Shown here: positions 19,378 to 63,708 of the stretch, in pieces | Layout of the letters: the number at the start of each line of letters is the position of its first letter | Numbering within the stretch: position 1 is the stretch's first letter | DNA from: an uncultured Ruminococcus sp. | GTDB lineage: Bacteria; Bacillota; Clostridia; Oscillospirales; Acutalibacteraceae | DNA length: 64,000 nt | Direction: 5' to 3' | NCBI GenBank assembly: GCA_964555975.1 | Contig: CAZKUO010000001.1 | Coordinates: 36,825 to 100,824 of the forward strand | Program-made: the position numbers and the translations under genes | Notes under the pieces: model-generated | What the model was told of the DNA's origin: nothing | Database searches by the model: none | What the model saw: only the letters and a program-made list of their open reading frames with translations

Positions 19378-19388
19378 TAAAATTCCTC

Positions 19389-19736
19389 TCAATCAATAGC
19401 TTTTGTGGCGATAATATCCGTTCCGAATACACCGGCTATTATTATATCACCTATATGCACGGGTGCACAAGCCTTTTTTTCATGTATCAGCCGCATAACC
19501 TCAAATATTTTATCTTTAGGCACGGGAGCGGCTGTTTTAACGCTTACCTGAGTATCCTTACGGTTTTCAACCCTTACGGTTGAGGTTACCGTTCGTGTGG
19601 GGTTGGTACATTCGTCAATTGCGTATTTTTCGCCCTTGGGGCAGCCGTTTCCCGTAACAAGTGCGGCTTTATCGGTTATTTCAACCGAAAGTGAGCAGCC
19701 TCGCGGGCAGATTATACAGGTTAAACTTCTTTTCAT
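19389..19736 (-). CDS. DUF1667 domain protein (third component of clostridial FAD-dependent glycerol-3-P dehydrogenase clusters)
   Basis: 115 aa with an N-terminal CIICPRGC Cys motif. ATGA overlap with the upstream oxidoreductase. Confidence 0.75.
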   Translation of the reverse strand: MKRSLTCIICPRGCSLSVEITDKAALVTGNGCPKGEKYAIDECTNPTRTVTSTVRVENRKDTQVSVKTAAPVPKDKIFEVMRLIHEKKACAPVHIGDIIIAGVFGTDIIATKAID

Positions 19737-48565: not shown

Positions 48566-48673
48566 GCAATAACGGCACGATTATTAACAGTTTGTTTAAT
48601 ATTTTTGTAAATTTGTTTGGTATGATATGCTTGATATGGTTCTACCAACGTAATTGTAAATGGAGGAGTACAA

Positions 48674-49741
48674 ATGATAGAAGTAACCGGACTCAGTAAA
48701 AGATACGGTACTCACCTTGCTGTGCGGGATGTCAGCTTTAGCATTAAAAAGGGCGAGGTTATAGGCTTTTTGGGTCCCAACGGTGCGGGAAAATCCACAA
48801 TAATGAATATTCTCACAGGCTACCTTTCGCTGACTCAGGGCAAGGCGGTAATTGATGGGTACGATATTGCGGAATACCCGGAGGATGCAAAGCGCAGAAT
48901 AGGCTATTTGCCCGAAATACCGCCGCTTTACCCCGATATGAAGGTGAGGGAATACCTTAATTTTATTTATGACCTTAAAAAGGTTAAATTCCCGAAGAAG
49001 CCGCATATTGACGAAATTTTGAGGCTTGTTAAAATCGATAATGTTCAAAACAGGCTTATTAAAAACCTTTCAAAGGGCTACAGGCAGCGTGTGGGCTTTG
49101 CACAGGCACTTATCGGCAACCCGGATGTGCTCATTCTCGATGAGCCTACCGTTGGCCTTGACCCCAAGCAGATAATCGAAATAAGAAATCTTATTTCAAG
49201 GCTCGGCAGAAATCACACAATAATTCTTTCCTCCCACATTCTGTCGGAAATACAGGCGGTTTGTAAGCGCGTTATAATTATAAACAAGGGCCAGATTATT
49301 GCGGATGACACACCCGATAATCTTTCCGACAAGCTTTCAAGCGATAGGTCGCTGGTGGCGCGAATAGTCTGCGGTGAGCAGGAAATGATCGATGCTTTAA
49401 GCACCGTTAAGGGTGTGAAATCGGTCACCTCACTCGGACGTCTTGAGGACGGCGCCTTTGACTTCCTTATTGAGCCGATTGACGGCGCCGATATTCGCGC
49501 GGAGGTTTTCAAAAGAATAGCCTCCCGCGGGAAAACACTTCTTTCCTTTACAAGCAACAAGCTTTCGCTTGAGCAGATTTTCCTGCGCCTTACCGAGGCC
49601 TCGGATAACGGCGAAATTAAAAGAATGCTCGGCATAACCGAGGCGGAGGAGCAGTGTGAGGAAGCACCCGAGCTTGAAATTAATGCTGACGGTGAGATTA
49701 CGGTTAAATCCGAGGAATCGGAAAAGGAGGAGGCAGAGTAA
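48674..49741 (+). CDS. ABC transporter ATP-binding protein (GldA-like)
   Basis: Walker A GPNGAGKST, signature LSKGYRQR, Walker B LILDEP and an acidic C-terminal tail. Confidence 0.9.
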   Translation: MIEVTGLSKRYGTHLAVRDVSFSIKKGEVIGFLGPNGAGKSTIMNILTGYLSLTQGKAVIDGYDIAEYPEDAKRRIGYLPEIPPLYPDMKVREYLNFIYDLKKVKFPKKPHIDEILRLVKIDNVQNRLIKNLSKGYRQRVGFAQALIGNPDVLILDEPTVGLDPKQIIEIRNLISRLGRNHTIILSSHILSEIQAVCKRVIIINKGQIIADDTPDNLSDKLSSDRSLVARIVCGEQEMIDALSTVKGVKSVTSLGRLEDGAFDFLIEPIDGADIRAEVFKRIASRGKTLLSFTSNKLSLEQIFLRLTEASDNGEIKRMLGITEAEEQCEEAPELEINADGEITVKSEESEKEEAE

Positions 49742-50442
49742 TGAGTGCGGTATTTAAAAGAGAGCTTCGCTCATATTTCACAACGCCGATAGGCTTTATA
49801 GTAATTGCGGCGTTTTATTTCTTTCTGGGTCTTTATTTTTCATTGATATACAGCTACGGCAGCCCTGAGGTTTCAACGGTGATTATGGCAATGTCAACCG
49901 TTATTGTGTTTACAATGCCGGTGCTTACCATGCGCCTTATGAGTGAGGACAGGCGTCAAAAGGTGGATCAGGCCCTGCTTACGGCCCCTGTAAGCCTTAC
50001 CTCAATTGTGCTTGGCAAATTTTTTGCGGCACTTGCGGTTTTCGCAATCGGTTTTGCACCCACGGTTATTTTTGAAATAATTGTAGCCTGCTATGTAAAC
50101 GTAAACGTTATGTCGTATATTTATGCGCTTTTCGGAATGCTGTTGCTCGGCAGTGCCCTTATTGCAATAGGTATGTTTATATCCTCCCTTACGGAAAGCT
50201 CGGTTATTTCGGCAATACTTACGCTGGTAATTAACATACTTGTGCTTTATATGTCAAGCTTTGTGAGTATGATAAACGTAAGCTGGCTTGCAACTGTTGT
50301 TGAAAAGGCGGCCTTTATTTCCGCATTTGAAAATTTCGGTGAGAATATACTTTCCGTAAGTGATATAGTTTATTTTCTCAGTATAAGTGCGGCGTTCCTT
50401 TTCCTGTGCGTTCGCGCACTCGATAAGAGAAGATGGTCTTAA
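49741..50442 (+). CDS. ABC-2 type permease (GldF-like)
   Basis: 233 aa with 6 TM helices. The start codon overlaps the ATPase stop. Confidence 0.8.
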   Translation: MSAVFKRELRSYFTTPIGFIVIAAFYFFLGLYFSLIYSYGSPEVSTVIMAMSTVIVFTMPVLTMRLMSEDRRQKVDQALLTAPVSLTSIVLGKFFAALAVFAIGFAPTVIFEIIVACYVNVNVMSYIYALFGMLLLGSALIAIGMFISSLTESSVISAILTLVINILVLYMSSFVSMINVSWLATVVEKAAFISAFENFGENILSVSDIVYFLSISAAFLFLCVRALDKRRWS

Positions 50443-50458
50443 AGGAGGGCGAGTGAAA

Positions 50459-52153
50459 ATGGAAGAAAACAAGAACCTTAACACGGAGGAGCAGGAGACC
50501 GTAAGCGAAACAAACGCGACTGCTGCCGAGGCGGCCGATGTTGAAAAGGTTGCCGATAAAAAAGAGAAACGTGCCAAAAGGGAAAAGAAGCCCAAAAAGC
50601 CTAAAATGCTTAAAAATCAGGCGCTTTTGCGCCGCGGCGGATATTCGGTTGCAATAACCGCGGCCGTGCTTGCGGGTCTTATAGTGCTTAATGTTTTGGT
50701 AAGTGCCCTTTCAAAGCGCTTTGTGCTTGAATTTGATATGAGCACCGACAAGATTAATTCAATGAGCGAGGAAAACATTGATTATTTGCGCAACCTCGAT
50801 GCCGAGGTTACGGTCACGGTATGTGCCGAAAAGGAGGGCTATACCGACGGCTATATGAACTATTATGCGCAAAATCTTTACGGCGTGAGCTCCGATGCCA
50901 CCGAATATTTTGAGCAAACCCTTAAGCTGCTTGATAAATATCCCGCCTACAGCGATAAAATTACACTTAATTATGTTGACACTCAGGGCACCGAATTTAC
51001 TGAAATTTCCTCTAAGTATTCAAGCGAAAAGCTTTATTACGGTGATATAATCGTTTCGCACACCGCCGAGAACGGCAACGAGCGCTACAAGGTGCTCGGC
51101 TTTAAGGATATTTACAGCCTTTATGAGGACACAACCTATGCCTCCTACGGCTACACCACCTCAACCGTTAACGGAAACAAGGTGGAAACCGCGGTGACAG
51201 GCGCAATAGCCTATGTTACAAGCAGCAAAACAAAGAAAATAGCCTTTTTAACCGGTCACTCAAGGTCGGATTACAACGAGGATTACAAAAAGCTTTTGAC
51301 CGAGAACAATTATGAAATTACCGAAATTTCCGACAGCCTTGTAGGCAGCATTTCAAATGAATTTGATGCGGTTGTTATTGCCGCTCCCACGGTAGATTTT
51401 ATCGACAGTGAGCTTGATTGCCTTTCGGAATTTTTGGATAACGACGGAAAGCTCGGCAAGGGTCTGCTCTTTTTCGCGGATGCTTCGGCACCTTACCTTA
51501 CGGGACTTTACGATTTCCTCAGTCAATGGGGAATTTCGGTTGAGGAAGGTATACTTTACGAAACCAATGAAAGCAACCATATGGCCGATGACCCCATGAC
51601 AATGGGCATTTACCCGACAAGTGAGAGTGAGGAGCTTACAAGCGGAATGCAGCTTTGCATTACGGGCTACAATGTTCCTATGACAACCCTTTTTGAAACC
51701 GAGGGTGGAATTACGGTGACCTCACTTATGAGCTCGCTTGATTCGGTGGTTGCCGCCCCAGTGGGCACCTCTGCCGGTTGGACGGGTGCCGGAGATCACA
51801 CAAAGCAAAGCTATCAATCGGTTATACAGGCGGATTGCTCCGAATACAACGATGATAACGAGCTTATTTCAAGCTATGTTTTTGCTTTCGGCACAACCGA
51901 GTATCTGCAATCGGCCTATAATGAGTATAGCTCCGTTTCAAATAAGGATATTACACTTGCCTGCACAGAGCGTGCCGTCGGTGCGGAGGACACGGGAATT
52001 TCCTTTGTTTCCAAAACCATAACCGATGAAAGCTTTGCCGATTCCGTAAGTCAGTCGGGCACAAGGGTAATAAGAATTGTATTTATGGCTATACTCCCAA
52101 TAGCCTGCATAGCAGCCGGAATTTACATCTTTATCAGGAGAAGAAATGCGTGA
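50459..52153 (+). CDS. GldG-like ABC-transporter auxiliary protein
   Basis: Lys/Glu-rich N-terminus, TM helix, large extracytoplasmic domain and a C-terminal TM helix. The ATG at 50459 behind AAAGGAGGG is preferred over 50387. Confidence 0.7.
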   Translation: MEENKNLNTEEQETVSETNATAAEAADVEKVADKKEKRAKREKKPKKPKMLKNQALLRRGGYSVAITAAVLAGLIVLNVLVSALSKRFVLEFDMSTDKINSMSEENIDYLRNLDAEVTVTVCAEKEGYTDGYMNYYAQNLYGVSSDATEYFEQTLKLLDKYPAYSDKITLNYVDTQGTEFTEISSKYSSEKLYYGDIIVSHTAENGNERYKVLGFKDIYSLYEDTTYASYGYTTSTVNGNKVETAVTGAIAYVTSSKTKKIAFLTGHSRSDYNEDYKKLLTENNYEITEISDSLVGSISNEFDAVVIAAPTVDFIDSELDCLSEFLDNDGKLGKGLLFFADASAPYLTGLYDFLSQWGISVEEGILYETNESNHMADDPMTMGIYPTSESEELTSGMQLCITGYNVPMTTLFETEGGITVTSLMSSLDSVVAAPVGTSAGWTGAGDHTKQSYQSVIQADCSEYNDDNELISSYVFAFGTTEYLQSAYNEYSSVSNKDITLACTERAVGAEDTGISFVSKTITDESFADSVSQSGTRVIRIVFMAILPIACIAAGIYIFIRRRNA

Positions 52154-53763
52154 TGAATGACCTCCCCGAAAAGGATAATATGGAAAAAGATAATATTTTG
52201 AACGAGGTCGAGAATGTTGAGGAGGACGGTGCTTCCACCGTCTTTTCCGACCCAGTTCGGCATAATGAAGCACAGCCGGTGCGCGGCAAAAAAAAGCTGT
52301 TGCCCGCAGTAATAGCGGCCGCTATTGCGGTTTGCCTGCTTGTGGGCGGCACGGTTGCGGTAATTAAGCTTGTTCCCGAGCGAGAGGACACAAGCTCAAC
52401 CCCCTCACTTGATGCAATTACCGTGCTTGATTTGGAAACGGATGAGCTTGCCTCCGTTACCGTGACAAACGCGAGCGGAACCTTTAAGCTTTACTCCGAG
52501 GAGGTAAGCTCTGAGGAAAAGGATGAGGATACCTCAAGCTCGGATACGAAAATCGAGTGGTATCTTGACGGGTACGATAAGGAAGTTATAAGCTCCTCAT
52601 CGGCTTCGGGTATTGTAAGCAGTGCGGCCTCCGTTACCGCTTCAAGAGAGGTTACCGCCAAAACAGCCGCCGAATGTGGGCTTGAAAGCCCCGCAATCAG
52701 GGTGGATTATGTGAAGAAGGACGGAACCGAGCTTTCGTTGCTTATCGGTAACACATCACCCGACAGCACGGGAACTTATATTAAGCTTTCAACCGATGAT
52801 AAAATTTACATTAATGATGCTTCGGTAGATTCATCCCTTGAATTTGATGCGCTGAGCCTTGCCGCGACCGATGCTTTGGCGGGTGTTACGGTTACGGATG
52901 CCATGTCGGATTATACCGATGATAACGGTGCGCTTGCCTCGTTTGATACCATAACACTAAGCGGTGCCAAATTCCCCGAAAAGCTGATTTTGGCTCCCAA
53001 TACCGATGAAAATCTTTCGGATTACGCAGCCTATATAACCCTTGCACCCACAAAGCGCATTGCCGATAAGGTGGACGGTATTTTTGAATTTTTCAAGAGC
53101 GGCACTACGGTAAGCGGTGCGTACTCGTTTGATACCTCGGCCGCAGAGCGCAAAAGGCTCGGGCTTGACAGCCCCGACCTTATTGCCGAAATTAAAATCG
53201 GCGGCCTTACACAAAGCTACAGCTTTAAGCAGCAGGCGGACGGCGATTACGCCGTGTGGTATGACGGCTGCAAGCTTATCAAAAAGCTTTCGGCCTCGGG
53301 GATTGAATTTATCAATTACACGGTAAACGATTATTATTCATCCTGGGTGTGCCTGCAATCAATAAACGAGCTTTCGGGCTTTACACTGAAAACGGCCGAC
53401 AAAACCTACAGCTTCGGTATAGTTTATGATGACAGCGAGGATGCCGAGGAAACCTACGTTATAACCTATAACGGCAATAAGCTCACTGCTGAGAATTTCC
53501 AAAGCTTTTATCAGGAGTGCATTTCGCTTTCCTGCACCGATTATACCGTTGACGAGGCAAATAACGGCGCGGTTGAGGTAACAATGGTGTTTACCTATTC
53601 CGATACCTCACGTGAGAACACTGTGGTTGAATTTGTAAAATCGGGTGCCGCTAAGTATCAGTACAGCATAAACGGCATTAAAATGGGTAAAATCAATTCC
53701 TCCGCACTTAACAAAGTGGTAAAGTATGCGGAAAAGGTTGCAAATAACGAAAGTGTAAAATAG
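52150..53763 (+). CDS. DUF4340-like membrane-anchored protein (usual partner of GldG-like genes)
   Basis: 537 aa with one N-terminal TM helix. ATGA overlap with the upstream gene. Family assignment is from architecture and context only. Confidence 0.55.
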   Translation: MMNDLPEKDNMEKDNILNEVENVEEDGASTVFSDPVRHNEAQPVRGKKKLLPAVIAAAIAVCLLVGGTVAVIKLVPEREDTSSTPSLDAITVLDLETDELASVTVTNASGTFKLYSEEVSSEEKDEDTSSSDTKIEWYLDGYDKEVISSSSASGIVSSAASVTASREVTAKTAAECGLESPAIRVDYVKKDGTELSLLIGNTSPDSTGTYIKLSTDDKIYINDASVDSSLEFDALSLAATDALAGVTVTDAMSDYTDDNGALASFDTITLSGAKFPEKLILAPNTDENLSDYAAYITLAPTKRIADKVDGIFEFFKSGTTVSGAYSFDTSAAERKRLGLDSPDLIAEIKIGGLTQSYSFKQQADGDYAVWYDGCKLIKKLSASGIEFINYTVNDYYSSWVCLQSINELSGFTLKTADKTYSFGIVYDDSEDAEETYVITYNGNKLTAENFQSFYQECISLSCTDYTVDEANNGAVEVTMVFTYSDTSRENTVVEFVKSGAAKYQYSINGIKMGKINSSALNKVVKYAEKVANNESVK

Positions 53764-53813
53764 CTTTCTCGTCGGTATCCGTTTGCACGCACAGAAATAT
53801 AATTTATTTAACC

Positions 53814-53853
53814 TTACGGGGGTCGTTTCATAAAAATGAAACGACCCCCGTAA
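53814..53853 (+). terminator. strong hairpin terminator after the ABC/GldG/DUF4340 operon
   Basis: TTACGGGGGTCGTTTCAT-AAAA-ATGAAACGACCCCCGTAA: a perfect 18-bp stem. Confidence 0.8.
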
Positions 53854-53903
53854 ATTATATCAGGTTTTTTGATTGGAATACATAAATACTCATCAATTAG
53901 GTC

Positions 53904-53933
53904 TTGACAAAATAATGCGGGGGGGGGTATACT
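53904..53933 (+). promoter_or_regulatory. near-consensus sigma-70 promoter with a G9 tract in the spacer
   Basis: TTGACA (53904-09), 18-nt spacer AAATAATGC+GGGGGGGGG, TATACT (53928-33), 50 nt upstream of the ATG at 53983. Confidence 0.7.
53919..53927. repeat. homopolymeric G9 tract
   Basis: Nine consecutive G directly abutting the -10 hexamer. Confidence 0.95.
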
Positions 53934-53982
53934 ATTTAAGTATATTATTTTAGAAATTTTGCCATGAAAAGAGGTTGATGTA

Positions 53983-55131
53983 ATGCGGAAAATCGGTCGC
54001 GGAGCATTTTGCTTATTTGCGGCTTTTATTATCTTTCTTTCATCTGCCGAAAGACTTGGAGCGGAAAGCAATGATGTTTCATTTACGGCCGACAGCAAAA
54101 GCTTTGCCGTGCTTGATGAGTATGCGCGAATTTGGACTGAATTAAAAAAGCCCGTGGGCGCAGAGGTTACCACCGCCGGAATTTACCTGTGGCGAAGTGA
54201 CAGAGACCGACCCGAAAGCCCCACTTATACCGAGTATTTTTCAAAATACGATAACTATGCTTCGGTTTCCTCTTTGCCTATAAATTATCGTGTGGGTCAG
54301 CATGAAGAAGTGAAATTCAAGCTTTTGCCGAATACCGAGTATTATTGCTTGGTTTTTTGTGTGGTGGACGGAATTTATTATGAAACGGGAGAAATTAAAT
54401 TTCAAACAGAAGCAGAAATGAAGCCGTTTGATTTTGAAAAAACAGGCGATTATGCAAACGACCTTGTCCTTGCGGCACTTTCTCAAAATGGTTATTGTGA
54501 GCTATCTGCTTCAAATGGACTGCCCCTGGAAGACGGAAATGGGCTTTGGTACACTAAATACGGGGCGGCATACGGTAATTCATCGGGCGCATGGTGTGCA
54601 TTTTTTGTGTTGCGCTGTGCTAAAGCTGCGGGAGTACCCACTGATATTATTCCTCAACAATCAGCACTCGGGAATTGCGGAGTGTTTGTTGAAAAGCTGA
54701 AGAATGCGGGACGTTGGCGTGAACCGGATTTCACCCCACGCCGCGGAGATTTGATTTTCTTCGATTGGGGTGATGACGGTAACGCAAGTCATGTGGGAAT
54801 AGTAATGTCAGCAGATGAAAATGTAATTTACACGGTTGAGGGCAATGTTTGTGCGGACGAAAACGGAGATTTATCGGAAAAAGGGAGGTATCAGGTTACT
54901 ACCGCTGAACGGAGCGAGCATATATTAGGCTATGGTGCAGTATCTGAAGCTCTTTTCGGTGATGTTGACGGTGACGGAGCAGTCAATTTTAATGATGTTA
55001 AATCAATTTTAAAATTTGATGTAACGGGAGAGGGAATAGCTGCTGTTACCACGGCTGATTTGAACGGCGACGGAAAAATCGATGCCGCCGATGCGGGTAT
55101 CTTATACAGAAAACTTAACAGGGGAGAATGA
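53983..55131 (+). CDS. secreted CHAP-domain peptidoglycan hydrolase with C-terminal dockerin
   Basis: Signal peptide. CHAP catalytic pattern: GAWCAFF (Cys codon 54595-97), ASHVGIV (His codon 54790-92), YTVEGN. Dockerin duplicated Ca-loops DVDGDGAVNFND and DLNGDGKIDAAD (about 54955-55116). Confidence 0.8.
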   Translation: MRKIGRGAFCLFAAFIIFLSSAERLGAESNDVSFTADSKSFAVLDEYARIWTELKKPVGAEVTTAGIYLWRSDRDRPESPTYTEYFSKYDNYASVSSLPINYRVGQHEEVKFKLLPNTEYYCLVFCVVDGIYYETGEIKFQTEAEMKPFDFEKTGDYANDLVLAALSQNGYCELSASNGLPLEDGNGLWYTKYGAAYGNSSGAWCAFFVLRCAKAAGVPTDIIPQQSALGNCGVFVEKLKNAGRWREPDFTPRRGDLIFFDWGDDGNASHVGIVMSADENVIYTVEGNVCADENGDLSEKGRYQVTTAERSEHILGYGAVSEALFGDVDGDGAVNFNDVKSILKFDVTGEGIAAVTTADLNGDGKIDAADAGILYRKLNRGE

Positions 55132-58100
55132 ATATGAGAAAAATCAAAAAATTTTGTGCTGCTTTTTTAGTAATGATTTTGACCGTTTTAAGCTTTTCGG
55201 CTGCATTTACGGTCAGTGCGGCAAACTTAACGGAAGAAGAATTTGCCGCTAAAATAGCGCAGTTGAAAACAGAGTATCCTGACGGAAAGTATTGGTCGGA
55301 TAAAAACGGTACTGTTAAAAGCGGCAAATACAAAGGAACATCTTTGGTTGGAAATAAGAAATGCAGCAAATCGTATGGTTGGTGTTCATACTGTGGAACA
55401 TTTGCTCTTAACGGTACATATCTGGCATGGCAGTGTCACGGATATTCACTCTTATTAGCTCACAAAATATTTGGTAGTAATGCAAACGATTGGCCTAAAG
55501 CAAGCGATAAAAAATTATACGCCGGCGATGTGGTGAGAATAGATCTTGACGGTGACGGCATCAATGATGACTACGATCACACTATATTTGTCTACAAAGT
55601 TACATCATCAAATGTGTATTATACAGATTGTAATGGCAGTGATCCGTGCCAAATCAGATGGACAAGTGAATCTTACACAAAACTTAAGAAAAAAATACTT
55701 TATATAAGGCGATATAAAGGAAATACATTGACGGGAACAGGCTCTTCCTCCTCATCTTCCTCATCAACAGACAATACTGTCCATAAAACAACCGAAACAT
55801 TGGTATATAACGGAATTTATACGGTTAAGAACGCATCATCAGGCAAGATGCTGAATGTTTATGCAGGTGTAAATTCAGACGGTACAAAGCTTACAACTTG
55901 GGATAGGGACGGAACTACCGATCAAAAATTTTATGTAAAGCACAACGGTGGGGGAAAATATCGGCTTTATGCTGTAACCTCTAAAAGCGGAAGCAACTAT
56001 GAAAGAGCGGTAGACATTAACATAGGCAGTGACGGAGCTTTGGGAACAGGTGACGATTACGGTGATATATGGTCCTGTTCTTCCTGGGATGATTGCCAGC
56101 AATTTTATTTGGTGCCGCAAAGTGACGGCAGCATTGTTTTGGAGCTTGCCTCAATGTCGGGAATGGTTCTTGCAAGCAAAAATGCAACCGAGGCAAATAA
56201 AAACGGCGGAGCAATAACCCTTTCAAGCTATAACGGAGCAAACACGCAAAAATGGTTTTTCTGCAGCGAGGACGGCACAGAGGTTTTAAATCCGACTGCA
56301 CGCTACAGCTTTTCCTATGACGGTAACGGTGCGGAAAGCGGCAACGGGGAAGCATTTACAATATATCCCGGTGAAAGCTTAACCGTAATAGCAAATCCAT
56401 TCACTCGTAGCGGGTACAGCTTTGCGGGGTGGAATGTTAACAGAAAATCCGATAATACCTGGTATGTTGCGGGAAAGGGTTGGAAAACAGAAACAGAAAT
56501 TGCCGAAAACGGATATACAAAGAAAACCTATACTCCCGGCTTGTCATACACTATTGACGCAACATGGACAAACGGAAGCAACTCGACAGAAAGCTTTGCG
56601 TTCAATGCTGTGTGGAGTAAAAATGTAAGCAGGCTTGTGTTTGATGCAGAAGGCTTTGAAACAATTTCGGTCAACACCGGTGACAGTGTCACAATACCCG
56701 ATTTTATTCCCGAAAAGGAGGGTCACAGCTTTTTGGGCTGGGCAACATATGAGGCTGCCGAGGAAGCAAGCTTGCTCCCGGGAGAGAGCTTTACACTTGA
56801 TGGTGATTTGACACTTTACCCTGTGTGGTACGATGATACAATAGTAAATATTTATTTAAAGACTAAGCCGTCCAAGCAGATATATGCGGTGGGTGACAAT
56901 GTCGACACAGCGCAGGTATCGCTTTATGTGGAGAAAAACGATGGCAGTGTTGAAACTGTGACAAGCGGATTTAAGTGTGATAAAACAAGAATTACCGCGC
57001 TTGGTAAAAACACCGTTAATGTAAGCTATAAAATGCGTTCTGTTGCATTTACGGTGACTGCGGTAAGCTGTCCGGGATATACTTCCGCAAAGGCAACCGC
57101 CAAAAAGCTCACCTACCTTTTACCGAGTACATCCTCAAAAACAACCATGGGGCTTTCTGTTGACGAGGTTTATAAGGATGATGTGTGTAAAATAATCTGC
57201 AAGGATGGGGATTTTTACCTCATAGAATATCCTTATGTTAAGTGGAATGTTTTTTCTTATGTGAGTACGGCGGCATTTTCAAATGTCAGCGGAGTACCGG
57301 ATGCTTCGGAGGTATATTCAAATATTTCGGCAGTGACGAACAAATCAACACCGGTATATCACCGCCCGTCAACCGATAAAATGATAAGCAGCAACGGCAA
57401 CGGAGACTTAACACTTATTGATACCTTGTCTAAAGGAAGAACGGTAACGGTTTTATTCGAATATAACGGGTATTATTATATTCGCACATCATCTTATACC
57501 GGCTTTGTTGCTAAAAGCGCTTTGACATTTGAGGATGATGCGGAAAGTGTAATGCTTGAAACCGCCGGGAAATCCGAATTTGATTTGGGTGAAAGCTTCA
57601 GTTTGGGCGCTACTGTTCTTTCGGCAAAATATACCAACGGAAAAACAGAAAGCGTTTCTTCGGGATTTAAACTTTCGGCACCTGAAATCGATGGTGAAGG
57701 TAACTATAATGTTTTTGTGGGTATTGATGATGTTTATACCTATTATAGCATACGAGTTGCCGAAAAAGAAATTGAAAGCATAGCAATTAACACCTATCCT
57801 TCGGCTAAACACTACATCAATGAGCCGATTAATTTGCAAGGCATGACTATAAAAGCTATTTATACCGACGGTACAGAAAAGATTATCGATTACGGATTTG
57901 AAGTAATCGGTAGCATTACGCGCATTGGAAAAAATACGATTTCCTGTAAATATAAAAATCATACCGCATCCCTTGATTTGGAAGGTTGCGAGCGTACACA
58001 TATTGATTTTTCAACCGCATCAGGTAGAATCAATTCGGAAATTTCCGTAAGTGTATCACTTGTTCCGTCTGAAGCAGTTTATGACGGCAGTATATTGATA

Positions 58101-58577
58101 CATTACGATGCAAAAAAGCTCAGACTTAACGGCATCACGCCGAACACAAATATTCCGGACGGAACAATGATTGAGTATAATTCGGAATATGGCACCGGTC
58201 TTGCGAAAATCTCTTTTATAACCGATAGCGGAGCAGATGCAACTGTTTTGCTGGCATCCCTCAAATTCACGGTTTTAAAAGGAGCATACGGTAGTGCTGA
58301 AACAAGTGTTAATGCCAAAACCGCTTTTTACGACAAGGACGGCGACCCGCTTGATTATGTAATTAAGAGCGGTGAAGTTGAGATCGTCAACGAAATCGGT
58401 GATGCAAATTGTGACGGTTATGTCGACATTCGTGATATGGTACACATTAAAAAGGCAACTTCCGGCTTAGAATATAAGGAGTCCTGCGACTTCAACAATG
58501 ATAAGCTTAATAACACGCTTGATATTACTTTGCTTAAAAAATTCATTCTCGGATTATTGAAAAGCTTTGCGAATTGA
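55128..58577 (+). CDS. large secreted multidomain protein: Cys/His peptidase-like domain, ricin-B lectin, Listeria-Bacteroides repeats, Ig-like and SH3-like domains, cohesin and dockerin
   Basis: 1149 aa. Signal peptide ending TVSA. WQCHGY/DHTIFV Cys-His pair and a poly-Ser linker. Three QxF/W ricin repeats (DQKFYV, CQQFYL, TQKWFF). GYSFAGWN and GHSFLGWA repeats and Big_3-like modules. ATGA overlap with the upstream gene. Confidence 0.8.
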   Translation: MNMRKIKKFCAAFLVMILTVLSFSAAFTVSAANLTEEEFAAKIAQLKTEYPDGKYWSDKNGTVKSGKYKGTSLVGNKKCSKSYGWCSYCGTFALNGTYLAWQCHGYSLLLAHKIFGSNANDWPKASDKKLYAGDVVRIDLDGDGINDDYDHTIFVYKVTSSNVYYTDCNGSDPCQIRWTSESYTKLKKKILYIRRYKGNTLTGTGSSSSSSSSTDNTVHKTTETLVYNGIYTVKNASSGKMLNVYAGVNSDGTKLTTWDRDGTTDQKFYVKHNGGGKYRLYAVTSKSGSNYERAVDINIGSDGALGTGDDYGDIWSCSSWDDCQQFYLVPQSDGSIVLELASMSGMVLASKNATEANKNGGAITLSSYNGANTQKWFFCSEDGTEVLNPTARYSFSYDGNGAESGNGEAFTIYPGESLTVIANPFTRSGYSFAGWNVNRKSDNTWYVAGKGWKTETEIAENGYTKKTYTPGLSYTIDATWTNGSNSTESFAFNAVWSKNVSRLVFDAEGFETISVNTGDSVTIPDFIPEKEGHSFLGWATYEAAEEASLLPGESFTLDGDLTLYPVWYDDTIVNIYLKTKPSKQIYAVGDNVDTAQVSLYVEKNDGSVETVTSGFKCDKTRITALGKNTVNVSYKMRSVAFTVTAVSCPGYTSAKATAKKLTYLLPSTSSKTTMGLSVDEVYKDDVCKIICKDGDFYLIEYPYVKWNVFSYVSTAAFSNVSGVPDASEVYSNISAVTNKSTPVYHRPSTDKMISSNGNGDLTLIDTLSKGRTVTVLFEYNGYYYIRTSSYTGFVAKSALTFEDDAESVMLETAGKSEFDLGESFSLGATVLSAKYTNGKTESVSSGFKLSAPEIDGEGNYNVFVGIDDVYTYYSIRVAEKEIESIAINTYPSAKHYINEPINLQGMTIKAIYTDGTEKIIDYGFEVIGSITRIGKNTISCKYKNHTASLDLEGCERTHIDFSTASGRINSEISVSVSLVPSEAVYDGSILIHYDAKKLRLNGITPNTNIPDGTMIEYNSEYGTGLAKISFITDSGADATVLLASLKFTVLKGAYGSAETSVNAKTAFYDKDGDPLDYVIKSGEVEIVNEIGDANCDGYVDIRDMVHIKKATSGLEYKESCDFNNDKLNNTLDITLLKKFILGLLKSFAN
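57996..58391 (+). other. cohesin-like module of the 1149-aa protein
   Basis: aa ~957-1088: FSTASGRINSEISVSVSLVP...ILIHYDAKKLRLNGITP...LASLKFTVLKG. This alternating beta-strand pattern resembles cohesins. Assigned by eye only. Confidence 0.55.
58392..58556 (+). other. dockerin module of the 1149-aa protein
   Basis: GDANCDGYVDIRDMVHIKK ... CDFNNDKLNNTLDITLLKKFILG: a duplicated EF-hand-like Ca-binding loop plus helix. Confidence 0.75.
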
Positions 58578-58653
58578 AGCGATGTAAAAAGAACTTCGTT
58601 TAAAATAACTGTTGACAAGCAGGGCAATTTAGCTTAAAATAAATAAGCAGTAG

Positions 58654-58692
58654 AGGCTGTACCCTTAAAAAAGGGTGCAGCCTGATTTTCTG
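58654..58692 (+). terminator. rho-independent terminator after the CHAP/cohesin operon
   Basis: AGGCTGTACCCTT-AAAAA-AGGGTGCAGCCT followed by GATTTTCTGTT. Confidence 0.7.
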
Positions 58693-58715
58693 TTGTGAAA
58701 GGATGTATTTGTATT

Positions 58716-60095
58716 ATGTCTCAAAAGTATGATGTTGCGATTATAGGCGGCGGTATAGGTGGACTTATGGCGGCTTACAGGCTTTGCCGCAATATACCGA
58801 ATATTAAAATAGTAATAACCGAGCGCGGAAATACGCTTGAAAACAGGCATTGCCCCGCAGGTAAAAACAATACCTGCGTTCACTGTAAGCATTGCTCCAT
58901 AACAAGCGGCTATGCGGGTGCAGGTGCCTTTTCGGACGGTAAGTTTAACCTCGGCACGGCTTACGGCGGAACACTCGGTGAGGAATTGGGCGACGATACC
59001 GCCAATACATATATCGACGAGGTTGATAAAATTCTGAATGAATACTGCACCTCGGGTGAGCCTACGGTTTACAAATCAAACGAAGAATTGAAGCTGAAGT
59101 GCCTGCAAAACAATTTGCGCCTGCTTGATATGAACGTTAAGCACCTCGGCACCGATAAGAATTACGTTACAATGCAGAACCTTATAAACGCACTTGCGGC
59201 CGATGGGGTTGATATGCTTGCGTTCTATGATTGCGAGCACGTTGAAAAAACCGACGGCGGCTATACCCTGCATTACACCAACGGTGAGGTAATAACAGCC
59301 GAAAAGGTAATAATAGCAACAGGTCGCGGCGGAGCCAATTTTGTGGCAGATTTCTGCCGTTCGTTCGGTGTGCGTATGCGCTCCAATTATGTTGACATCG
59401 GCGTTCGCGTGGAAATGAAGGATATAATTTGGCGTGAATTTTCAGACCGAATTTATGAGCCGAAGATACTTTACAGAACCAAAACCTTTGAGGACAGGTG
59501 CAGAATGTTCTGCTTTAACAAGGGCGGCCTGGTATCTGCCGAAAACAATCACGGCATTATCACGGCAAACGGTCACTCCTTTGCGGATCCCGCCAAAAAG
59601 ACCGACAACTGCAACTTTGCCATTCTTTCAAGCATTCGCTTTACCGAGCCCTTTGACCAGCCCACAGAGTATGCCGAGAGCATATCGCGCCTTGCAAATA
59701 TGATAGGCAAGGGCAATGTGCTTGTTCAGCGCTTTGGTGATTTGGTTCGCGGCAGACGCACCAACGACCACCGTTTGGGTCAGAATACGGTTATACCCAC
59801 GCTTAAGGCTACCTCGGGGGATATTTCGCTTGTGCTTCCCCACAGAATACTTACAAACATTATAGAAACCATTTACGCACTTGATAAGGTGGCGCCCGGC
59901 ACCGCAAATGACGATACACTGCTTTACGGGTGTGAGAGCAAATATTACTCAATTCGCCCCGAATTTATGAATGAAAAATTTGAGCTTACGGATAATGTGT
60001 ATATTATAGGCGACGGCAGCGGCATTTGCCGCGGACTTTCGCAGTCGGGCGCTATGGGAATTTACGTTGCCGACTGTATTTCCGAGAAAAAATAA
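58716..60095 (+). CDS. FAD-dependent protein (COG2509-type NAD(P)/FAD oxidoreductase)
   Basis: YDVAIIGGGIGGLMAA dinucleotide fold and a CPAG...CVHCKHC Cys cluster. The ATG at 58716 is preferred over the GTG at 58695. Confidence 0.7.
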   Translation: MSQKYDVAIIGGGIGGLMAAYRLCRNIPNIKIVITERGNTLENRHCPAGKNNTCVHCKHCSITSGYAGAGAFSDGKFNLGTAYGGTLGEELGDDTANTYIDEVDKILNEYCTSGEPTVYKSNEELKLKCLQNNLRLLDMNVKHLGTDKNYVTMQNLINALAADGVDMLAFYDCEHVEKTDGGYTLHYTNGEVITAEKVIIATGRGGANFVADFCRSFGVRMRSNYVDIGVRVEMKDIIWREFSDRIYEPKILYRTKTFEDRCRMFCFNKGGLVSAENNHGIITANGHSFADPAKKTDNCNFAILSSIRFTEPFDQPTEYAESISRLANMIGKGNVLVQRFGDLVRGRRTNDHRLGQNTVIPTLKATSGDISLVLPHRILTNIIETIYALDKVAPGTANDDTLLYGCESKYYSIRPEFMNEKFELTDNVYIIGDGSGICRGLSQSGAMGIYVADCISEKK

Positions 60096-60170
60096 TTTTT
60101 TTGTAACCCTTTTTGTCACGCCGTACGTTTTATTAATGAGTATTCGGTCTGGCATAGCCGAAAGAGAGGG

Positions 60171-61808
60171 GTGGGTGACACTGTGATTATAAACCGAAAA
60201 AGTTTGCTTTGCTTTATTCTTGCACTGCTGTTTTGCTTTATGTGCGGCTGTAAAAAGGCGGATGATGTGGTGAGTGAGCCTTCCTATAGCAGTGTGCAGG
60301 TGGACACCGAGCTTGTTGCAGATGACACTGCCGACCCCGAAAACAGCGAGATTAAAAGCGAAATCGGCGCGCAAATCAGTGCCGAGGAGCTGACTGCCAA
60401 GGCAGGCAAGGCCAATGGAATAGATGTTTCCAAATGGCAGGGGAGGATAGATTGGAGCAAGGTTGCGTCCTCCGGTATTGATTTTGCCATGATTCGCATA
60501 GGCTTTCGCGGGGAAAACGGAATTATATATCGTGATACCTGCGCCGATTATAACATTCAGCAGGCGGAAAAGGTCGGAATTGCGGTGGGTGTTTATTTCT
60601 TTTCCACTGCTGTTGACACGGAGGAAGCACTCAAGGAGGCCGAGTGGACGGTTGCGGCAATTGCGGGATATTCCATTTCCTGCCCGGTGGTGTACGATTG
60701 TGAGGGCTTTTTGAACAGCGGCAGTCGAATGTACGGTATTTCAAGCGAACAGCGAACCGATAATGCACTTGCGTTTTTAAATTCGGTTAAGTCTGCGGGA
60801 TATGAGGGAATGCTTTATTCCGCCGTGAGCGAGCTTGCGGCTTCAAAGTATTGGCAAACCAAAAGGCTTGAAAAGGAATTTTCCGTTTGGGTGGCACGTT
60901 ATCCCGAGGTGCCATACCCCAAAACCGAGCAGCCGGGCTACAGCGGCAGATACGATATGTGGCAGTATACCGATAACGGCCGTGTAAACGGGATTGACGG
61001 CAACGTGGATTTATCGGTTGCATATTTTGTGCCCACACCGAAAAATCCGAAAAACAGCTCTGCAAGGCCCAATGCTGCCGAAGCCCCAAGCGAGAACGGA
61101 GATGCATATTATTCCGCGGCCGAGGCTGATGTTACGCCGAAAATAGAGGTTAATTTGCGTGCCGCCGCCACAACAAAAAGCAGTATTGTGGCAACGGTTA
61201 AAAACGGCACCGTGCTCAAGCGCAAGAGCGTGGGTACAAACGGTTGGTCGCGCCTTAGCTATAACGGTCAAACCGTTTATGCAATAACAAGCTATCTCAC
61301 AACCGATATCGGCTATCGTCCGCCCGCAGATGACGGCTTTGCGGCAGCAGAGGGACAGGTTACAGCAAAGGATGAAACCAATTTACGCGCCGCCCCCTCT
61401 ACCGACAGTGAAATTGTGGCCGTGATAAAAAACGGCGATTTTGTTAAAAAAACGGGCGAGAACAGAGCGGGTTGGACACGGCTTGACTATAACGGAAGGA
61501 CGGTTTACGCAAAATCAAGCCTGCTTACAACCGAGGTTCGGGAAATTACCGATGTTACACCCTCGGCAAATGACGGCTTTACAGCGGCGGGCGGCAGATT
61601 TACCGCAAAGGATGAGGTGAATTTACGCTCCGCACCGAACGGCAAGGAGGATAATGTTGTGTGTATGCTCAAGCGCGGCGATTTTGCCGAGCGGCTCGGC
61701 ACTAACGGCGGTAAGGGCTGGACAAAGCTTTTGTATAACGGGCAAACGCTTTATGCGGTATCAAGTATGCTTTTGTCCGAGGAGGAATTTAACTCGGCAG
61801 AGCAATAA
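60171..61808 (+). CDS. GH25 muramidase (lysozyme) lipoprotein with three C-terminal SH3b repeats
   Basis: Lipobox-like LLFCFMCGC. GH25 start GIDVSKWQGRIDW...DFAMIRIG and DMWQYTD. Three ~70-aa SH3b repeats. The start may be the GTG at 60171 or at 60183. Confidence 0.85.
   Translation: MGDTVIINRKSLLCFILALLFCFMCGCKKADDVVSEPSYSSVQVDTELVADDTADPENSEIKSEIGAQISAEELTAKAGKANGIDVSKWQGRIDWSKVASSGIDFAMIRIGFRGENGIIYRDTCADYNIQQAEKVGIAVGVYFFSTAVDTEEALKEAEWTVAAIAGYSISCPVVYDCEGFLNSGSRMYGISSEQRTDNALAFLNSVKSAGYEGMLYSAVSELAASKYWQTKRLEKEFSVWVARYPEVPYPKTEQPGYSGRYDMWQYTDNGRVNGIDGNVDLSVAYFVPTPKNPKNSSARPNAAEAPSENGDAYYSAAEADVTPKIEVNLRAAATTKSSIVATVKNGTVLKRKSVGTNGWSRLSYNGQTVYAITSYLTTDIGYRPPADDGFAAAEGQVTAKDETNLRAAPSTDSEIVAVIKNGDFVKKTGENRAGWTRLDYNGRTVYAKSSLLTTEVREITDVTPSANDGFTAAGGRFTAKDEVNLRSAPNGKEDNVVCMLKRGDFAERLGTNGGKGWTKLLYNGQTLYAVSSMLLSEEEFNSAEQ
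61128..61790 (+). repeat. three tandem SH3b-encoding repeats inside the GH25 gene
   Basis: Repeated pattern (V/F)T(P/A)K.E.NLR(A/S)AP...GW(S/T)(R/K)L.YNG(Q/R)T(V/L)YA..S.L occurs three times. Confidence 0.8.
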
Positions 61809-61826
61809 AAATATTTTAAAACATTT

Positions 61827-61864
61827 GGGGCGGTGCCCGTGAGAAAGCTCACAGGCACCGCCCC
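61827..61864. terminator. bidirectional hairpin between the lysozyme gene and the tiny Cys-rich ORF
   Basis: GGGGCGGTGCC-c-GTGAG-aaag-CTCAC-a-GGCACCGCCCC: 16 bp pair around a single mismatch. Confidence 0.7.
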
Positions 61865-61883
61865 TGTTGCACTTGCAGATAAA

Positions 61884-62012
61884 TCAGCAGCCGCAACCGC
61901 AGTTGTTGTCACAGCCGCAGCTGTTACCGCCGCATCCGCCGCAGCAAACGAGGATGAGGATTAAAATTATGATCCAGGTGCAGCCGTTTCCGCCGAAATT
62001 GTTGTTACACAT
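61884..62012 (-). CDS. tiny (42 aa) Cys/Gly/Asn-rich single-TM protein, YjcZ-like in architecture
   Basis: Not in the ORF track because it is under 60 aa. My translation is MCNNNFGGNGCTWIIILILILVCCGGCGGNSCGCDNNCGCGC. AAAGGAGG lies 8 nt upstream of the ATG, and a hairpin terminator follows the TGA. Confidence 0.65.
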   Translation of the reverse strand: MCNNNFGGNGCTWIIILILILVCCGGCGGNSCGCDNNCGCGC

Positions 62013-62068
62013 TGCAAAGACCTCCTTTTTTGTCTTCACCACATACTATGCCGAACGGAGAAAATGTG

Positions 62069-62827
62069 TTACTGCACAGGTTTTTTAAATATAAACAAAT
62101 ACTCATGTGCTATAAGCAAAAAGTTATATTTCACGCTATTTGTTTTCCAATATCCTGTTGCTTTGCAATTGTGTTGTTCTTTTATAATCAATTCTTTCAG
62201 TTTAAATCCGGCATCTTCAAAAATACGCATAACATCAAATGACATTGGTATCATACAGCCTTTTTGTCTTGTGTCACCCATAAGAATTGCACAGAACTTG
62301 TCCTTTTTCAGAACACGATAGCTTTCTGCCGCAACCTTTTTCATTTCCTCAAGAAAATCCTTTACTTTAAGTTGCGATAAATCACCGTCAATGCCATCAC
62401 TGTATTTTATAATATCAGCATACGGCGGGTGAGTGCATATTAAATCAATGCTTTCATCGGGAACAAAATCAAGATTTCGTGCATCACCCTTTTTGATATA
62501 TACCCTGCCTTTTGCCGGTTCATATTCAAAATCCGTCTTTTCTCGGCATCTTTCAAGTGCAATATCATTTATATCAACACCGATTATATCCCGATTTAAA
62601 AGCTTTGCTTCAACAAGCGTGGTTCCGCCTCCGGCAAATTGATCAAGCACTAAATCGTTTTCTTTTGAATAACGGAGGAGAATATTTCGGGGTATATACG
62701 GTGACCAATTGCCACGCCATTTTGCATCGTGCGTTGCCCAATTACCACGCTTCGGAAATGACCAATGAGTAGTCGTTTCAAGCTCAAAATCTCCCGGAGC
62801 ATATTTTTTGATTTTCTTTTCTGCCAT
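62069..62827 (-). CDS. SAM-dependent DNA methyltransferase (motif I before motif IV; HPPY)
   Basis: 252 aa. VLDQFAGGGTT (FxGxG) lies upstream of ICTHPPYADII. The start codon overlaps the stop of the R.DpnII-like gene. Confidence 0.7.
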   Translation of the reverse strand: MAEKKIKKYAPGDFELETTTHWSFPKRGNWATHDAKWRGNWSPYIPRNILLRYSKENDLVLDQFAGGGTTLVEAKLLNRDIIGVDINDIALERCREKTDFEYEPAKGRVYIKKGDARNLDFVPDESIDLICTHPPYADIIKYSDGIDGDLSQLKVKDFLEEMKKVAAESYRVLKKDKFCAILMGDTRQKGCMIPMSFDVMRIFEDAGFKLKELIIKEQHNCKATGYWKTNSVKYNFLLIAHEYLFIFKKPVQ

Positions 62828-63708
62828 TATTTAAAGACCTCTTGAATTATCCCGGTTTCCATATCATTGATATTATAAATGTGTTCCATAACATCAAAAG
62901 TTTCTTCAAGGTTATGTTTTGCATTTGTCCAACCCTTGCCATCCGTAAACCATACAAAAGTAAATCCGTCTATTGTATCGGTTTCAAGAGCAAGCGTTTT
63001 GTAGCTGCGTGCGGTTTCGTTAAGCTTTGAACCTTTGCTACCGTAAAAATTCGTTTCTATACCGTAGATCATATTGTCAGTTTTAACCACATAATCAAAT
63101 CGTTTTTCTGTTTTACCTTGATTTGAAATTGCAGATAAATCAATGCCCCATTTTTCGGTAATTTGATGAATATACATCTCTTTGTAGAAGTTTTTATTTT
63201 TTACAAAGCCTGCTTTTTTGATAAAGCCTTCAACCAAATTCTCCATAATGTGGCCGCCGCGATTTTTACGACCGTTGGAATCTAGCCCTGTTTCAACGCC
63301 GGTTACATAGTCAACCAAGTTGTTTACAATATGATTGGCCATTAAATCAAACAAGCCTGTTTTGCGCATGAAGACCTTGTATTGTTCTGCATCAAGATTA
63401 GGTTTCTTAAAATTATATGTAAATTCGCCGTCACTGTCTATTGCGTACATCTCATTTGACCGTACTGCCAAAAGTAAAGGAATACATTTTAAAACTTCGG
63501 GATATTTTTTAATTAAATTTTCAAAATCCGCTTCAATATTTTTAGAACCGATAAGGGAATTTAAGATATTAAGTTCAACCTTGATATTATCGACATTTCT
63601 GTGAACCTTTTCAAAATCTATGTAATAACCATAATCTGCGATACTGTCACGAAAACCGGATAACCATTCGTTAAAATCTCTGTTAGCCATATTTTTTATA
63701 CCCCTCAA
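62827..63708 (-). CDS. type II restriction endonuclease, DpnII/MboI family (GATC)
   Basis: 293 aa. Long colinear similarity to R.DpnII as I recall it (FNEWLS, NSLIGSKNI, LVDYVTGVE.G.D.NGRKNR, KRFD, FYGSKGSKLNETARSYK, YNINDME). Confidence 0.85.
   Translation of the reverse strand: MRGIKNMANRDFNEWLSGFRDSIADYGYYIDFEKVHRNVDNIKVELNILNSLIGSKNIEADFENLIKKYPEVLKCIPLLLAVRSNEMYAIDSDGEFTYNFKKPNLDAEQYKVFMRKTGLFDLMANHIVNNLVDYVTGVETGLDSNGRKNRGGHIMENLVEGFIKKAGFVKNKNFYKEMYIHQITEKWGIDLSAISNQGKTEKRFDYVVKTDNMIYGIETNFYGSKGSKLNETARSYKTLALETDTIDGFTFVWFTDGKGWTNAKHNLEETFDVMEHIYNINDMETGIIQEVFK

Follow-up and report, generated by a model that had tools for sequence, protein, structure and literature searches.

The window analysed here, a stretch of 64,000 nucleotides from an uncultured Ruminococcus sp., carries on its forward strand two adjacent genes, called gene 1 and gene 2 in the following, whose predicted secreted products combine domains of cell-wall hydrolases with cohesin and dockerin modules. 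Assembly by cohesins and dockerins is understood almost entirely through the degradation of plant fibre and starch. An initial annotation of this DNA had proposed that the CHAP enzyme encoded by gene 1 docks on the cohesin of its neighbour, the dockerin of which would then plug the pair into a further scaffold. Based on domain, structure and comparative analyses, the operon may well encode a secreted peptidoglycan-hydrolase complex of two subunits joined by a cohesin-dockerin contact, with a non-self target as the likeliest one; we give this reading a probability of about 0.55.

Layout and domain content of the two genes

Pfam profile matches were judged against the curated cut-offs, and the signal peptides of both proteins (MRKIGRGAFCLFAAFIIFLSSAERLGA in gene 1, MRKIKKFCAAFLVMILTVLSFSAAFTVSA in gene 2) by eye only. 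The features of the locus are the following.

53814-53853 (+): terminator-type hairpin (perfect 18-bp inverted repeat) at the end of the preceding ABC-transporter/DUF4340 unit; the operon's left boundary
53904-53933 (+): sigma-70-like promoter TTGACA-18-TATACT, a consensus match only (11/12 positions), 50 nt 5' of gene 1
53983-55131 (+): gene 1, 382 aa, with signal peptide, N-terminal domain, CHAP domain and type A dockerin
54073-54426 (+): gene 1 residues 31-148, a beta-rich, lineage-specific domain of about 120 residues
54430-54936 (+): gene 1 residues 150-318, endolysin-type CHAP domain, Pfam core at residues 200-288
54946-55128 (+): gene 1 residues 322-382, duplicated type A dockerin with calcium loops DVDGDGAVNFND and DLNGDGKIDAAD
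55120-55126 (+): Shine-Dalgarno sequence AGGGGAG inside the 3' end of gene 1, with a 7-nt spacer to the ATG at 55134
55134-58577 (+): gene 2, multidomain protein with cohesin and dockerin; 1147 aa with the start at ATG 55134, 1149 aa with the start at ATG 55128
55221-55742 (+): gene 2 residues 32-205, divergent CHAP-like Cys/His domain (the N-terminal domain, NTD)
55296-55709 (+): gene 2 residues about 57-194, strain-variable cassette with no DNA similarity to strain L001, encoding all catalytic residues of the head
55542-55577 (+): gene 2 residues 139-150, EF-hand-like loop of 12 residues DLDGDGINDDYD directly before the catalytic His151, in allele a only
55800-56261 (+): gene 2 residues 225-378, ricin-type beta-trefoil lectin (RicinB_lectin_2, 55.4 bits)
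56304-56837 (+): gene 2 residues about 393-570, two Flg_new (Listeria-Bacteroides) repeats (41.8 bits; approximate limits)
56862-57059 (+): gene 2 residues 579-644, first Big_3 Ig-like domain (Big_3, three copies, 40.1 bits)
57075-57527 (+): gene 2 residues about 650-800, pair of SH3-like modules (SH3_3, 24.3 bits, under the cut-off of 27)
57540-57977 (+): gene 2 residues about 805-950, second and third Big_3 domains (Pfam; approximate limits)
57999-58391 (+): gene 2 residues 958-1088, cohesin of clade I (Pfam, structure model and tree)
58392-58574 (+): gene 2 residues 1089-1149, type B dockerin (Pfam), loop 1 DANCDGYVDIRD canonical, loop 2 DFNNDKLNNTLD atypical
58654-58683 (+): hairpin of 13 pairs with a run of T behind it, resembling an intrinsic terminator; the operon's right boundary

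Both open reading frames (ORFs) sit where they had been placed before, at 53983-55131 (382 aa) and 55128-58577 (1149 aa). The ATGA overlap described between them exists, since the ATG at 55128-55130 overlaps the TGA at 55129-55131, but translation of gene 2 more probably starts at ATG 55134, because the Shine-Dalgarno sequence lies 7 nt from it and only 1 nt from ATG 55128; the equivalent of ATG 55134 was also chosen by the gene caller in strain L001. The junction is probably a 2-nt gap and not an overlap, and close coupling would be retained either way. Only two ORFs lie between the promoter and the terminator, and the gene pair is, as judged from these signals, a self-contained two-gene operon with a promoter and a terminator of its own.

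A protein 100% identical to the gene 1 product is present in NCBI (P0121). As originally annotated, it joins a CHAP domain (PF05257, 42.3 bits against a cut-off of 26) to a canonical duplicated dockerin (Dockerin_1, PF00404, residues 326-379, 33.2 bits against 22.9), both loops of which fit the pattern D-x-[DN]-x-D-G-x-[IV]-[DN]-x-x-D. The Cys205/His270/Glu286/Asn288 relay of the CHAP domain is invariant in seven family members. The matches of this domain include a streptococcal phage endolysin (8tw1) and endolysin groups of the PHROGs collection (phrog_9589, 3.5e-20), and the dockerin resembles that of CelS from Clostridium thermocellum (1daq, E-value 2.7e-6). For residues 31-148, no Pfam match was obtained and a search of PDB sequences gave nothing useful. 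The pair of SH3-like modules found in gene 2 also occurs in gene 1 homologues of other lineages; unlike these longer homologues, gene 1 of the window lacks the wall-binding pair and so would depend on gene 2 for targeting. A scan of JGI metagenomes with the gene 1 CHAP profile yielded five distant matches (30-39% identity), and a profile search with the gene 1 CHAP alignment retrieved a broad set of small CHAP proteins without recovering the family itself.

For the head of gene 2, the Pfam CHAP profile reaches 16.1 bits on residues 98-166, under the cut-off of 26. Among 16 homologues of the NTD, in which Gln102-Cys103, His151 and Asp167-Cys168-Asn169 are invariant, CHAP scores amount to 16-20 bits, nine of the 16 match Pfam CHAP below threshold (best E-value 4.2e-6), and no other Pfam family is matched consistently. 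A profile search of PDB sequences with the NTD returned no match, and alignment with the gene 1 CHAP profile by hhalign gave a probability of 36%, limited to the His motif. The structure model of the NTD (pLDDT 92) has its best PDB fold matches, which are weak (E-value 3e-4, TM-scores 0.3-0.4), in Ly7917, phi812 CHAP, LysIME-EF1, Tae2, PlyC (4f88, match 8) and Gsp amidase; as in papain-like enzymes, its Cys sits at a helix N-terminus and its His on a strand, and the third residue is polar. Moreover, a canonical CHAP domain occupies the position of the NTD in strain L006. The Cys/His peptidase-like domain of the initial annotation is thus borne out by the CHAP-lysin fold matches, the confident model and the invariant Q-C...H...N set, and we take the NTD, on the strength of the model, to be a divergent domain of the CHAP clan (CHAP/NlpC-P60 papain-like) without a Pfam model of its own. 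Its profile matches 2,852 cluster representatives in public data at E-values up to 1e-3, and 1,501 at up to 1e-10. The EF-hand-like loop recalls the calcium-dependent CHAP domain of LysGH15 (PMC4022735).

Of the modules behind the head, the ricin-type lectin (with three Q-x-(W/F) motifs recognised by eye at residues 266, 324 and 374), the Flg_new repeats and the Big_3 domains score above threshold as annotated, whereas the SH3 assignment is sub-threshold here and clear in relatives. The cohesin, which had been placed at 57996-58391 (residues 957-1088), passes both the profile and the structure search. Indeed, PF00963 matches residues 962-1086 with 37.1 bits against 24.1 and over profile positions 6-139 of 139, and for an AlphaFold2 model of residues 945-1149 (mean pLDDT 70.6, 73-87 in the cohesin part), the top 50 Foldseek matches in the PDB are all cohesins (best 3kcp_A, E-value 1.5e-10), with target-normalised TM-scores of up to 0.82 for the cohesin. 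The match list includes the non-cellulosomal cohesins of Archaeoglobus fulgidus (2xdh, match 11) and Clostridium perfringens (2vo8, 2jh2). The terminal dockerin stands in part: it is barely above the Pfam threshold (Dockerin_1, residues 1091-1141, 24.3 bits against 22.9) and its first loop is canonical, but the second has no Gly at position 6 and no hydrophobic residue at position 8, an atypical form that is conserved in a second species. Two cysteines of this dockerin, at residues 1094 and 1120 (DANCDG and ESCDF; 58401-58500), are conserved in that species as well, and a disulfide might join the two dockerin repeats. As previously stated, neither protein contains a glycoside hydrolase for plant polysaccharides according to Pfam; the pair has no cellulose-binding carbohydrate-binding module either, and the 64-kb window contains one cohesin and two dockerins, with no second cohesin and no third dockerin, which, within this stretch, sets the system apart from cellulosomes.

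One could ask whether these modules dock at all, or are structural spacers or carbohydrate-binding relics on two independent secreted hydrolases. For many of the cohesins and dockerins outside cellulosomes, reportedly the subject of Peer et al. 2009, no partner is known to have been demonstrated, and the atypical second loop of the gene 2 dockerin would agree with such a role. This explanation is nevertheless very improbable, given that both modules exceed the curated Pfam thresholds and the cohesin has the canonical fold, that the calcium-binding residues of the gene 1 dockerin are intact in both repeats, and that cohesin and dockerin modules are conserved across lineages which are 27-50% identical overall.

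Cohesin and dockerin lineages across gut Clostridia

Profiles of our own for dockerin, cohesin, CHAP and N-terminal domains were built, and 37 fetched loci were annotated (loci are numbered with the prefix L, proteins with the prefix P); the locus search with the NTD alignment yielded 14 loci, all from metagenome-assembled genomes (MAGs) and none from the organism of the window itself. The cohesin-dockerin alignment was built from contiguous dyads, and the cohesin groups were taken from a neighbour-joining tree. Clade I cohesins follow Big_3 modules in proteins of the gene 2 family and include the cohesin of the window; clade II cohesins are directly followed by a dockerin ("dyads").

Of the 14 distinct locus types, 10 have a gene ending in a type A dockerin directly 5' of the gene for the clade I cohesin, namely the species of the window, L001 and L006, a second species represented by L005 and L012, and the types L007, L035, L008/9, L010, L015, L028, L034 and L026/27. 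In L026/27 the partner is vestigial, with signal peptide, frameshift and linker-dockerin remaining. There (L026 9608-9997, and L027), a signal-peptide ORF of 27 codons, a frameshift and the linker with its type A dockerin precede P0004, the CHAP body being lost, and this state is found in two independent assemblies. At L034 (97-1457), two separate ORFs of 226 and 215 aa are called 5' of P0008, one for CHAP and one for the type A dockerin, which suggests that the partner gene is split or frameshifted.

In the dockerin tree, the type A dockerins of these 5' genes come out as a single group; they share a mean identity of 42% within it versus 26% to all others, and their three sub-groups mirror three sub-groups of clade I cohesins. 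Dockerins carried by cohesin proteins or by further proteins group genome by genome, for example the three in L007, the two in L017 and the two in L020, and the gene 2 dockerin of the window clusters with that of a DUF4430-dockerin protein of L012. The latter protein (19350-20354 (-), 334 aa), whose dockerin is of the gene 2 type, points to a wider dockerin system, and hence to further cohesins, in these organisms. The clade I cohesin is retained in homologues without a dockerin on the same chain (P0003, P0004, L014, L035), so that its partner there cannot be the protein's own dockerin. Taken as an association and not as evidence of binding, this co-occurrence favours docking of the gene 1 dockerin on the gene 2 cohesin.

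On a rival view, the two proteins are not direct partners: both dockerins would bind scaffolds elsewhere, the gene 2 cohesin would bind its own dockerin type or a third protein, and the adjacency of the genes would reflect shared regulation. Several observations count against a docked pair and are to be weighed at this point. In the window protein the cohesin abuts its own dockerin, as in the clade II dyads and in the self-binding enzyme Amy4 of Ruminococcus bromii, the cohesin of which binds its own dockerin (PMC4611034). In four locus types (L013, L014, L016 and L036/37), the clade I cohesin gene stands without any dockerin gene within reach. The bootstrap value of the type A split is only 89/200, which is weak because the alignment has about 65 columns, and the monophyly of type A could equally be plain vertical descent of the whole gene. 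The model of the gene 2 dockerin shows two predicted helices at a low pLDDT of 50-65. Finally, NTD and CHAP enzymes are adjacent at L023 and L024 and neither carries a cohesin or a dockerin, so that adjacency needs no docking; the same arrangement suggests that the enzyme partnership is older than the docking modules. Independence of the two proteins is nonetheless quite unlikely in our judgement. Clade I cohesin homologues lacking a dockerin still have a type A dockerin gene on their 5' side (L015, L035, L026), homogenisation with the other dockerins of a genome has affected type B but not type A dockerins, and the two dockerins within each pair are 22-32% identical, which argues for different partners.

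Some of these loci show further features. At L023 (9272-11496, a Lachnospiraceae MAG) and L024 (9263-12507, Eubacterium sp. MSJ-13), it is a small protein ending in a CHAP-like head that adjoins a (ricin-)CHAP protein. L007 (1-24893, uncultured gut Clostridia) contains a run of five genes on the same strand, which encode in this order a Glug-Big_3-cohesin-dockerin protein (2346 aa), a Peptidase_M23-dockerin protein (1414 aa), a ricin-CHAP-dockerin protein (970 aa), P0007 with a CHAP-like head, two cohesins and a dockerin, and an LRR_5/Big_2-dockerin protein (3468 aa). Three of the five carry nearly identical dockerins, and the run looks like a larger wall-hydrolase/cohesin-dockerin cluster. 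The protein of 1335 aa encoded at L020 (9680-13687) has six C-type lectin domains (341 bits), an array of a kind uncommon among bacteria, together with a CHAP-like head, a ricin lectin and a dockerin. The gene of an XRE-type helix-turn-helix regulator is found just 5' of the pair at L008 (2424-13901) and L028 (1033-1251), with a 177-aa protein encoded between regulator and pair at L008/L009. At L036 (317-643) a regulator of this type precedes a lone cohesin gene, and no CHAP-dockerin partner is present there. A type II-A CRISPR-Cas9 locus directly follows the pair at L008.

Exchange of the gene 2 head, mobility and the likely target

Comparison of closely related strains shows that the catalytic head of gene 2 has been exchanged. 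Identity between the window and L001 is 99.6% for 47001-55295 and 98.9% for 55710-62050, on either side of the variable cassette; in L006, which is 95-97% identical to the window, the stretch corresponding to 55145-55742 is replaced by a canonical CHAP domain. Three gene 2 head alleles (window, L001, L006) are thus embedded in flanking DNA that is 95-99.6% identical. In the second species (nucleotide identity with the window about 75%), a tract of 494 bp without similarity separates flanks in which L005 and L012 are 96-97% identical, and the alleles of this tract are the same two types (a and b) as in L001 and the window. Allele b has a Cys-rich insert in place of the EF-hand-like loop of allele a. 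The gene 2 head would thus be under diversifying or balancing selection, and because two species share these two alleles, lytic specificity is a trait on which selection in the gut may be acting.

The only region common to the window and L012 is the operon itself (54006-58571, 75.6% nucleotide identity), the flanks of L012 being unrelated to those of the window at both the DNA and the protein level. The operon has a GC content of 42.0% versus 48.5% in the rest of the window, in agreement with the earlier statement that the region is AT-richer than its surroundings. The acquisition proposed on these grounds receives modest support from the GC content and better support from the operon-only sharing with a related species; together, the two argue for an accessory, mobile unit. 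No repeats of the kind that bound mobile elements were seen around the operon, and its flanks are ordinary chromosomal genes (ABC transporter, DUF4340, FAD-dependent protein, GH25 enzyme). Relatives of gene 2 or of its N-terminal domain were absent from GenBank phages, plasmids and IMG/VR viral contigs. A phage or prophage lysis cassette was rejected as an explanation in view of the chromosomal flanks, the absence of phage or viral relatives and the Sec-type signal peptides (by eye), and a plasmid origin was rejected for lack of relatives in the plasmid collection.

Because the operon appears mobile and its head is exchanged, the walls of other bacteria, competitors or kin, would be a likelier target than the growing wall of the producer. 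A possible though less convincing explanation is a housekeeping pair of autolysins that acts on the producer's own wall, in separation, turnover, sporulation or germination, with docking serving merely for surface retention. Autolysins classically combine a signal peptide with CHAP and SH3/lectin modules, and SH3 and lectin modules are no less typical of the housekeeping members of this class. The sigma-70 promoter looks constitutive and no adjacent regulator gene was found in the 64-kb window; no immunity-like gene stands beside the pair or accompanies the swapped head among the operon ORFs; and a GH25 muramidase with three SH3 domains, encoded 1.6 kb downstream, could indicate a general wall-remodelling neighbourhood. 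The pair thereby departs from bacteriolysins (class III bacteriocins) with a linked immunity gene, although immunity may be encoded elsewhere in the genome. It is this missing gene, together with the generic layout of an autolysin, that leaves the housekeeping explanation in play. It fits poorly, however, with the unrelated genomic contexts in related species and the lower GC content, and with a partner gene that is vestigial or split in some lineages. It is also at odds with a head that is swapped between near-identical strains while both alleles persist in two species, which would be unusual for an autolysin because the chemistry of a cell's own wall is invariant.

Returning to the two-subunit complex, we infer its binding, activity, localisation and target from the sequences, in the following way. 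Subunit 1 would be an endolysin-type CHAP amidase or endopeptidase that has no wall-binding module of its own and carries the dedicated type A dockerin. Subunit 2 would provide a second CHAP-like hydrolase head, mounted on a long stalk whose lectin, Flg_new, Ig-like and SH3-like modules would bind cell-wall polymers. After Sec export of both, the type A dockerin would bind the clade I cohesin in a calcium-dependent manner, and two hydrolases, probably of different bond specificities, would thereby be carried on a single targeting scaffold as a non-covalent two-domain lysin. The different dockerin of subunit 2 would in turn tie both subunits to a further protein with a cohesin, made by the same cell; that it plugs into a scaffold encoded elsewhere, as first proposed, is plausible. 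The term lyticome has been suggested for an extracellular multi-enzyme bacteriolytic complex (Vermassen et al. 2019, PMC6403190). In a bolder and rather doubtful version of our reading, the operon would be a mobile, dedicated minimal lyticome in gut Clostridia, in which a private type A/clade I pair joins two hydrolases on one targeting scaffold, recombination exchanges the warhead, and balancing selection maintains its alternative alleles in more than one species; such a system would amount to a Gram-positive analogue of the polymorphic toxins, acting by contact or displayed on the surface, that kills competitors or kin.

If the proposed docking is true, the socket on one wall hydrolase and the plug on the other would constitute the first concrete genetic unit for the lyticome, an idea that would become directly testable with two recombinant modules, and protein engineers could draw on the private dockerin lineage for a naturally orthogonal cohesin-dockerin pair. 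The swappable head would be relevant to strain competition in the microbiome and as a source of new modular lysins.

Known systems and the surroundings of the operon

Dockerin-borne wall hydrolases, the lyticome idea and an enzyme carrying both cohesin and dockerin are already published, and the initial annotation is to that extent less novel than it implied. R. bromii Amy4, an enzyme with cohesin and dockerin, forms mini-complexes and self-associates (PMC4611034). Like Amy4, the gene 2 product is one secreted polypeptide (signal peptide by eye) on which a cohesin and a C-terminal dockerin accompany a catalytic module, and both belong to non-cellulosomal systems of gut Clostridia. In Amy4, the cohesin recruits other dockerin enzymes into mini-complexes and the dockerin links to a surface scaffoldin, for which we propose a counterpart here. 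The differences are that Amy4 is a GH13 amylase acting on starch whereas both catalytic modules are CHAP-type wall hydrolases here, that the partner enzyme is encoded here in the same operon and has a conserved dockerin lineage of its own, and that binding has been demonstrated for Amy4 whereas our system is known from sequence.

Lysozymes and peptidases that bear dockerins have been described in the rumen and proposed to be tools of attack or defence (Bensoussan et al. 2017, PMC6487960), and dockerin-bearing wall hydrolases of ruminococcal cellulosomes are also credited to Morais et al. 2016, as cited in PMC6403190 and PMC13463774. They resemble the present case as fusions of wall hydrolase and dockerin with a proposed role against other bacteria, but are guests on the cellulosomal scaffoldins of fibre degraders; here, by contrast, the cohesin is on a wall hydrolase itself, the unit is a dedicated one of two genes, and no plant-polysaccharide enzyme is present. 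RflaF_05439 of Ruminococcus flavefaciens, which has two NlpC/P60 modules and an X-dockerin, binds ScaE (PMC3573020). It has in common with gene 2 a papain-like Cys/His module of the NlpC/P60-CHAP superfamily that is recognisable by structure only and displayed through a dockerin; it differs in having no cohesin of its own, in binding the sortase-anchored cellulosomal ScaE cohesin, in that no activity was found, and in the absence of a partner gene. The conserved pairing and the head swapping are not described in the literature searched, the coverage of which was incomplete. Relative to that literature, the cohesin borne by a wall hydrolase, the conserved two-gene unit with its own dockerin lineage and the allelic heads appear to be new.

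There are other parallels. A. fulgidus AF2375/AF2376 is reportedly a non-cellulosomal cohesin-dockerin pair (Bayer 1999 and Voronov-Goldman 2011, as cited in PMC4611034); its genes are likewise neighbours, one for a protein with cohesin and dockerin and one for a protein with a dockerin only, but the system is archaeal and the attached modules are not known to be wall hydrolases. PlyC is a multimeric streptococcal phage lysin encoded by two genes, and CbpD is a streptococcal fratricin. The lytic holoenzyme of PlyC also stems from adjacent genes and unites two catalytic activities with a separate wall-binding part, but it is phage-encoded and is not known to use a cohesin or dockerin for its assembly. 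CbpD is secreted, has an N-terminal CHAP domain followed by SH3b and wall-binding modules and lyses kin; fratricins of this kind differ in being single polypeptides under competence control. Neither a phage nor a competence context was seen at the operon of the window. The glycosidase and toxin complexes of the gut bacterium C. perfringens are a non-cellulosomal assembly of secreted hydrolases through cohesin- and dockerin-like modules, but these are mucin/glycan glycosidases that act on host glycans and are not known as peptidoglycan hydrolases, and their genes are not known to be paired in one operon.

As regards the surroundings of the operon, the GH25 muramidase encoded 1.6 kb 3' of it (60171-61808 (+), 545 aa, three SH3_3/SH3_4 domains, no dockerin) is separated from it by the gene of the FAD-dependent protein (58695-60095) and is kept in strains L001 and L002, as a third wall hydrolase of the neighbourhood. 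The stretch 62069-63708 (-), with a GC content of 34-37%, encodes a restriction endonuclease of the DpnII type (370 bits) next to an N6/N4 DNA methylase; this restriction-modification pair is probably a strain-specific island, because the similarity to L001 ends at 62050. An Rfam search of the window found no RNA family. A second strong promoter-like site, TTGACA-17-TAAAAT (11/12), is located at 58612-58640, between the stop codon of gene 2 and the terminator hairpin and 5' of the gene of the FAD-dependent protein, and the position of a promoter before the hairpin could point to attenuation control.

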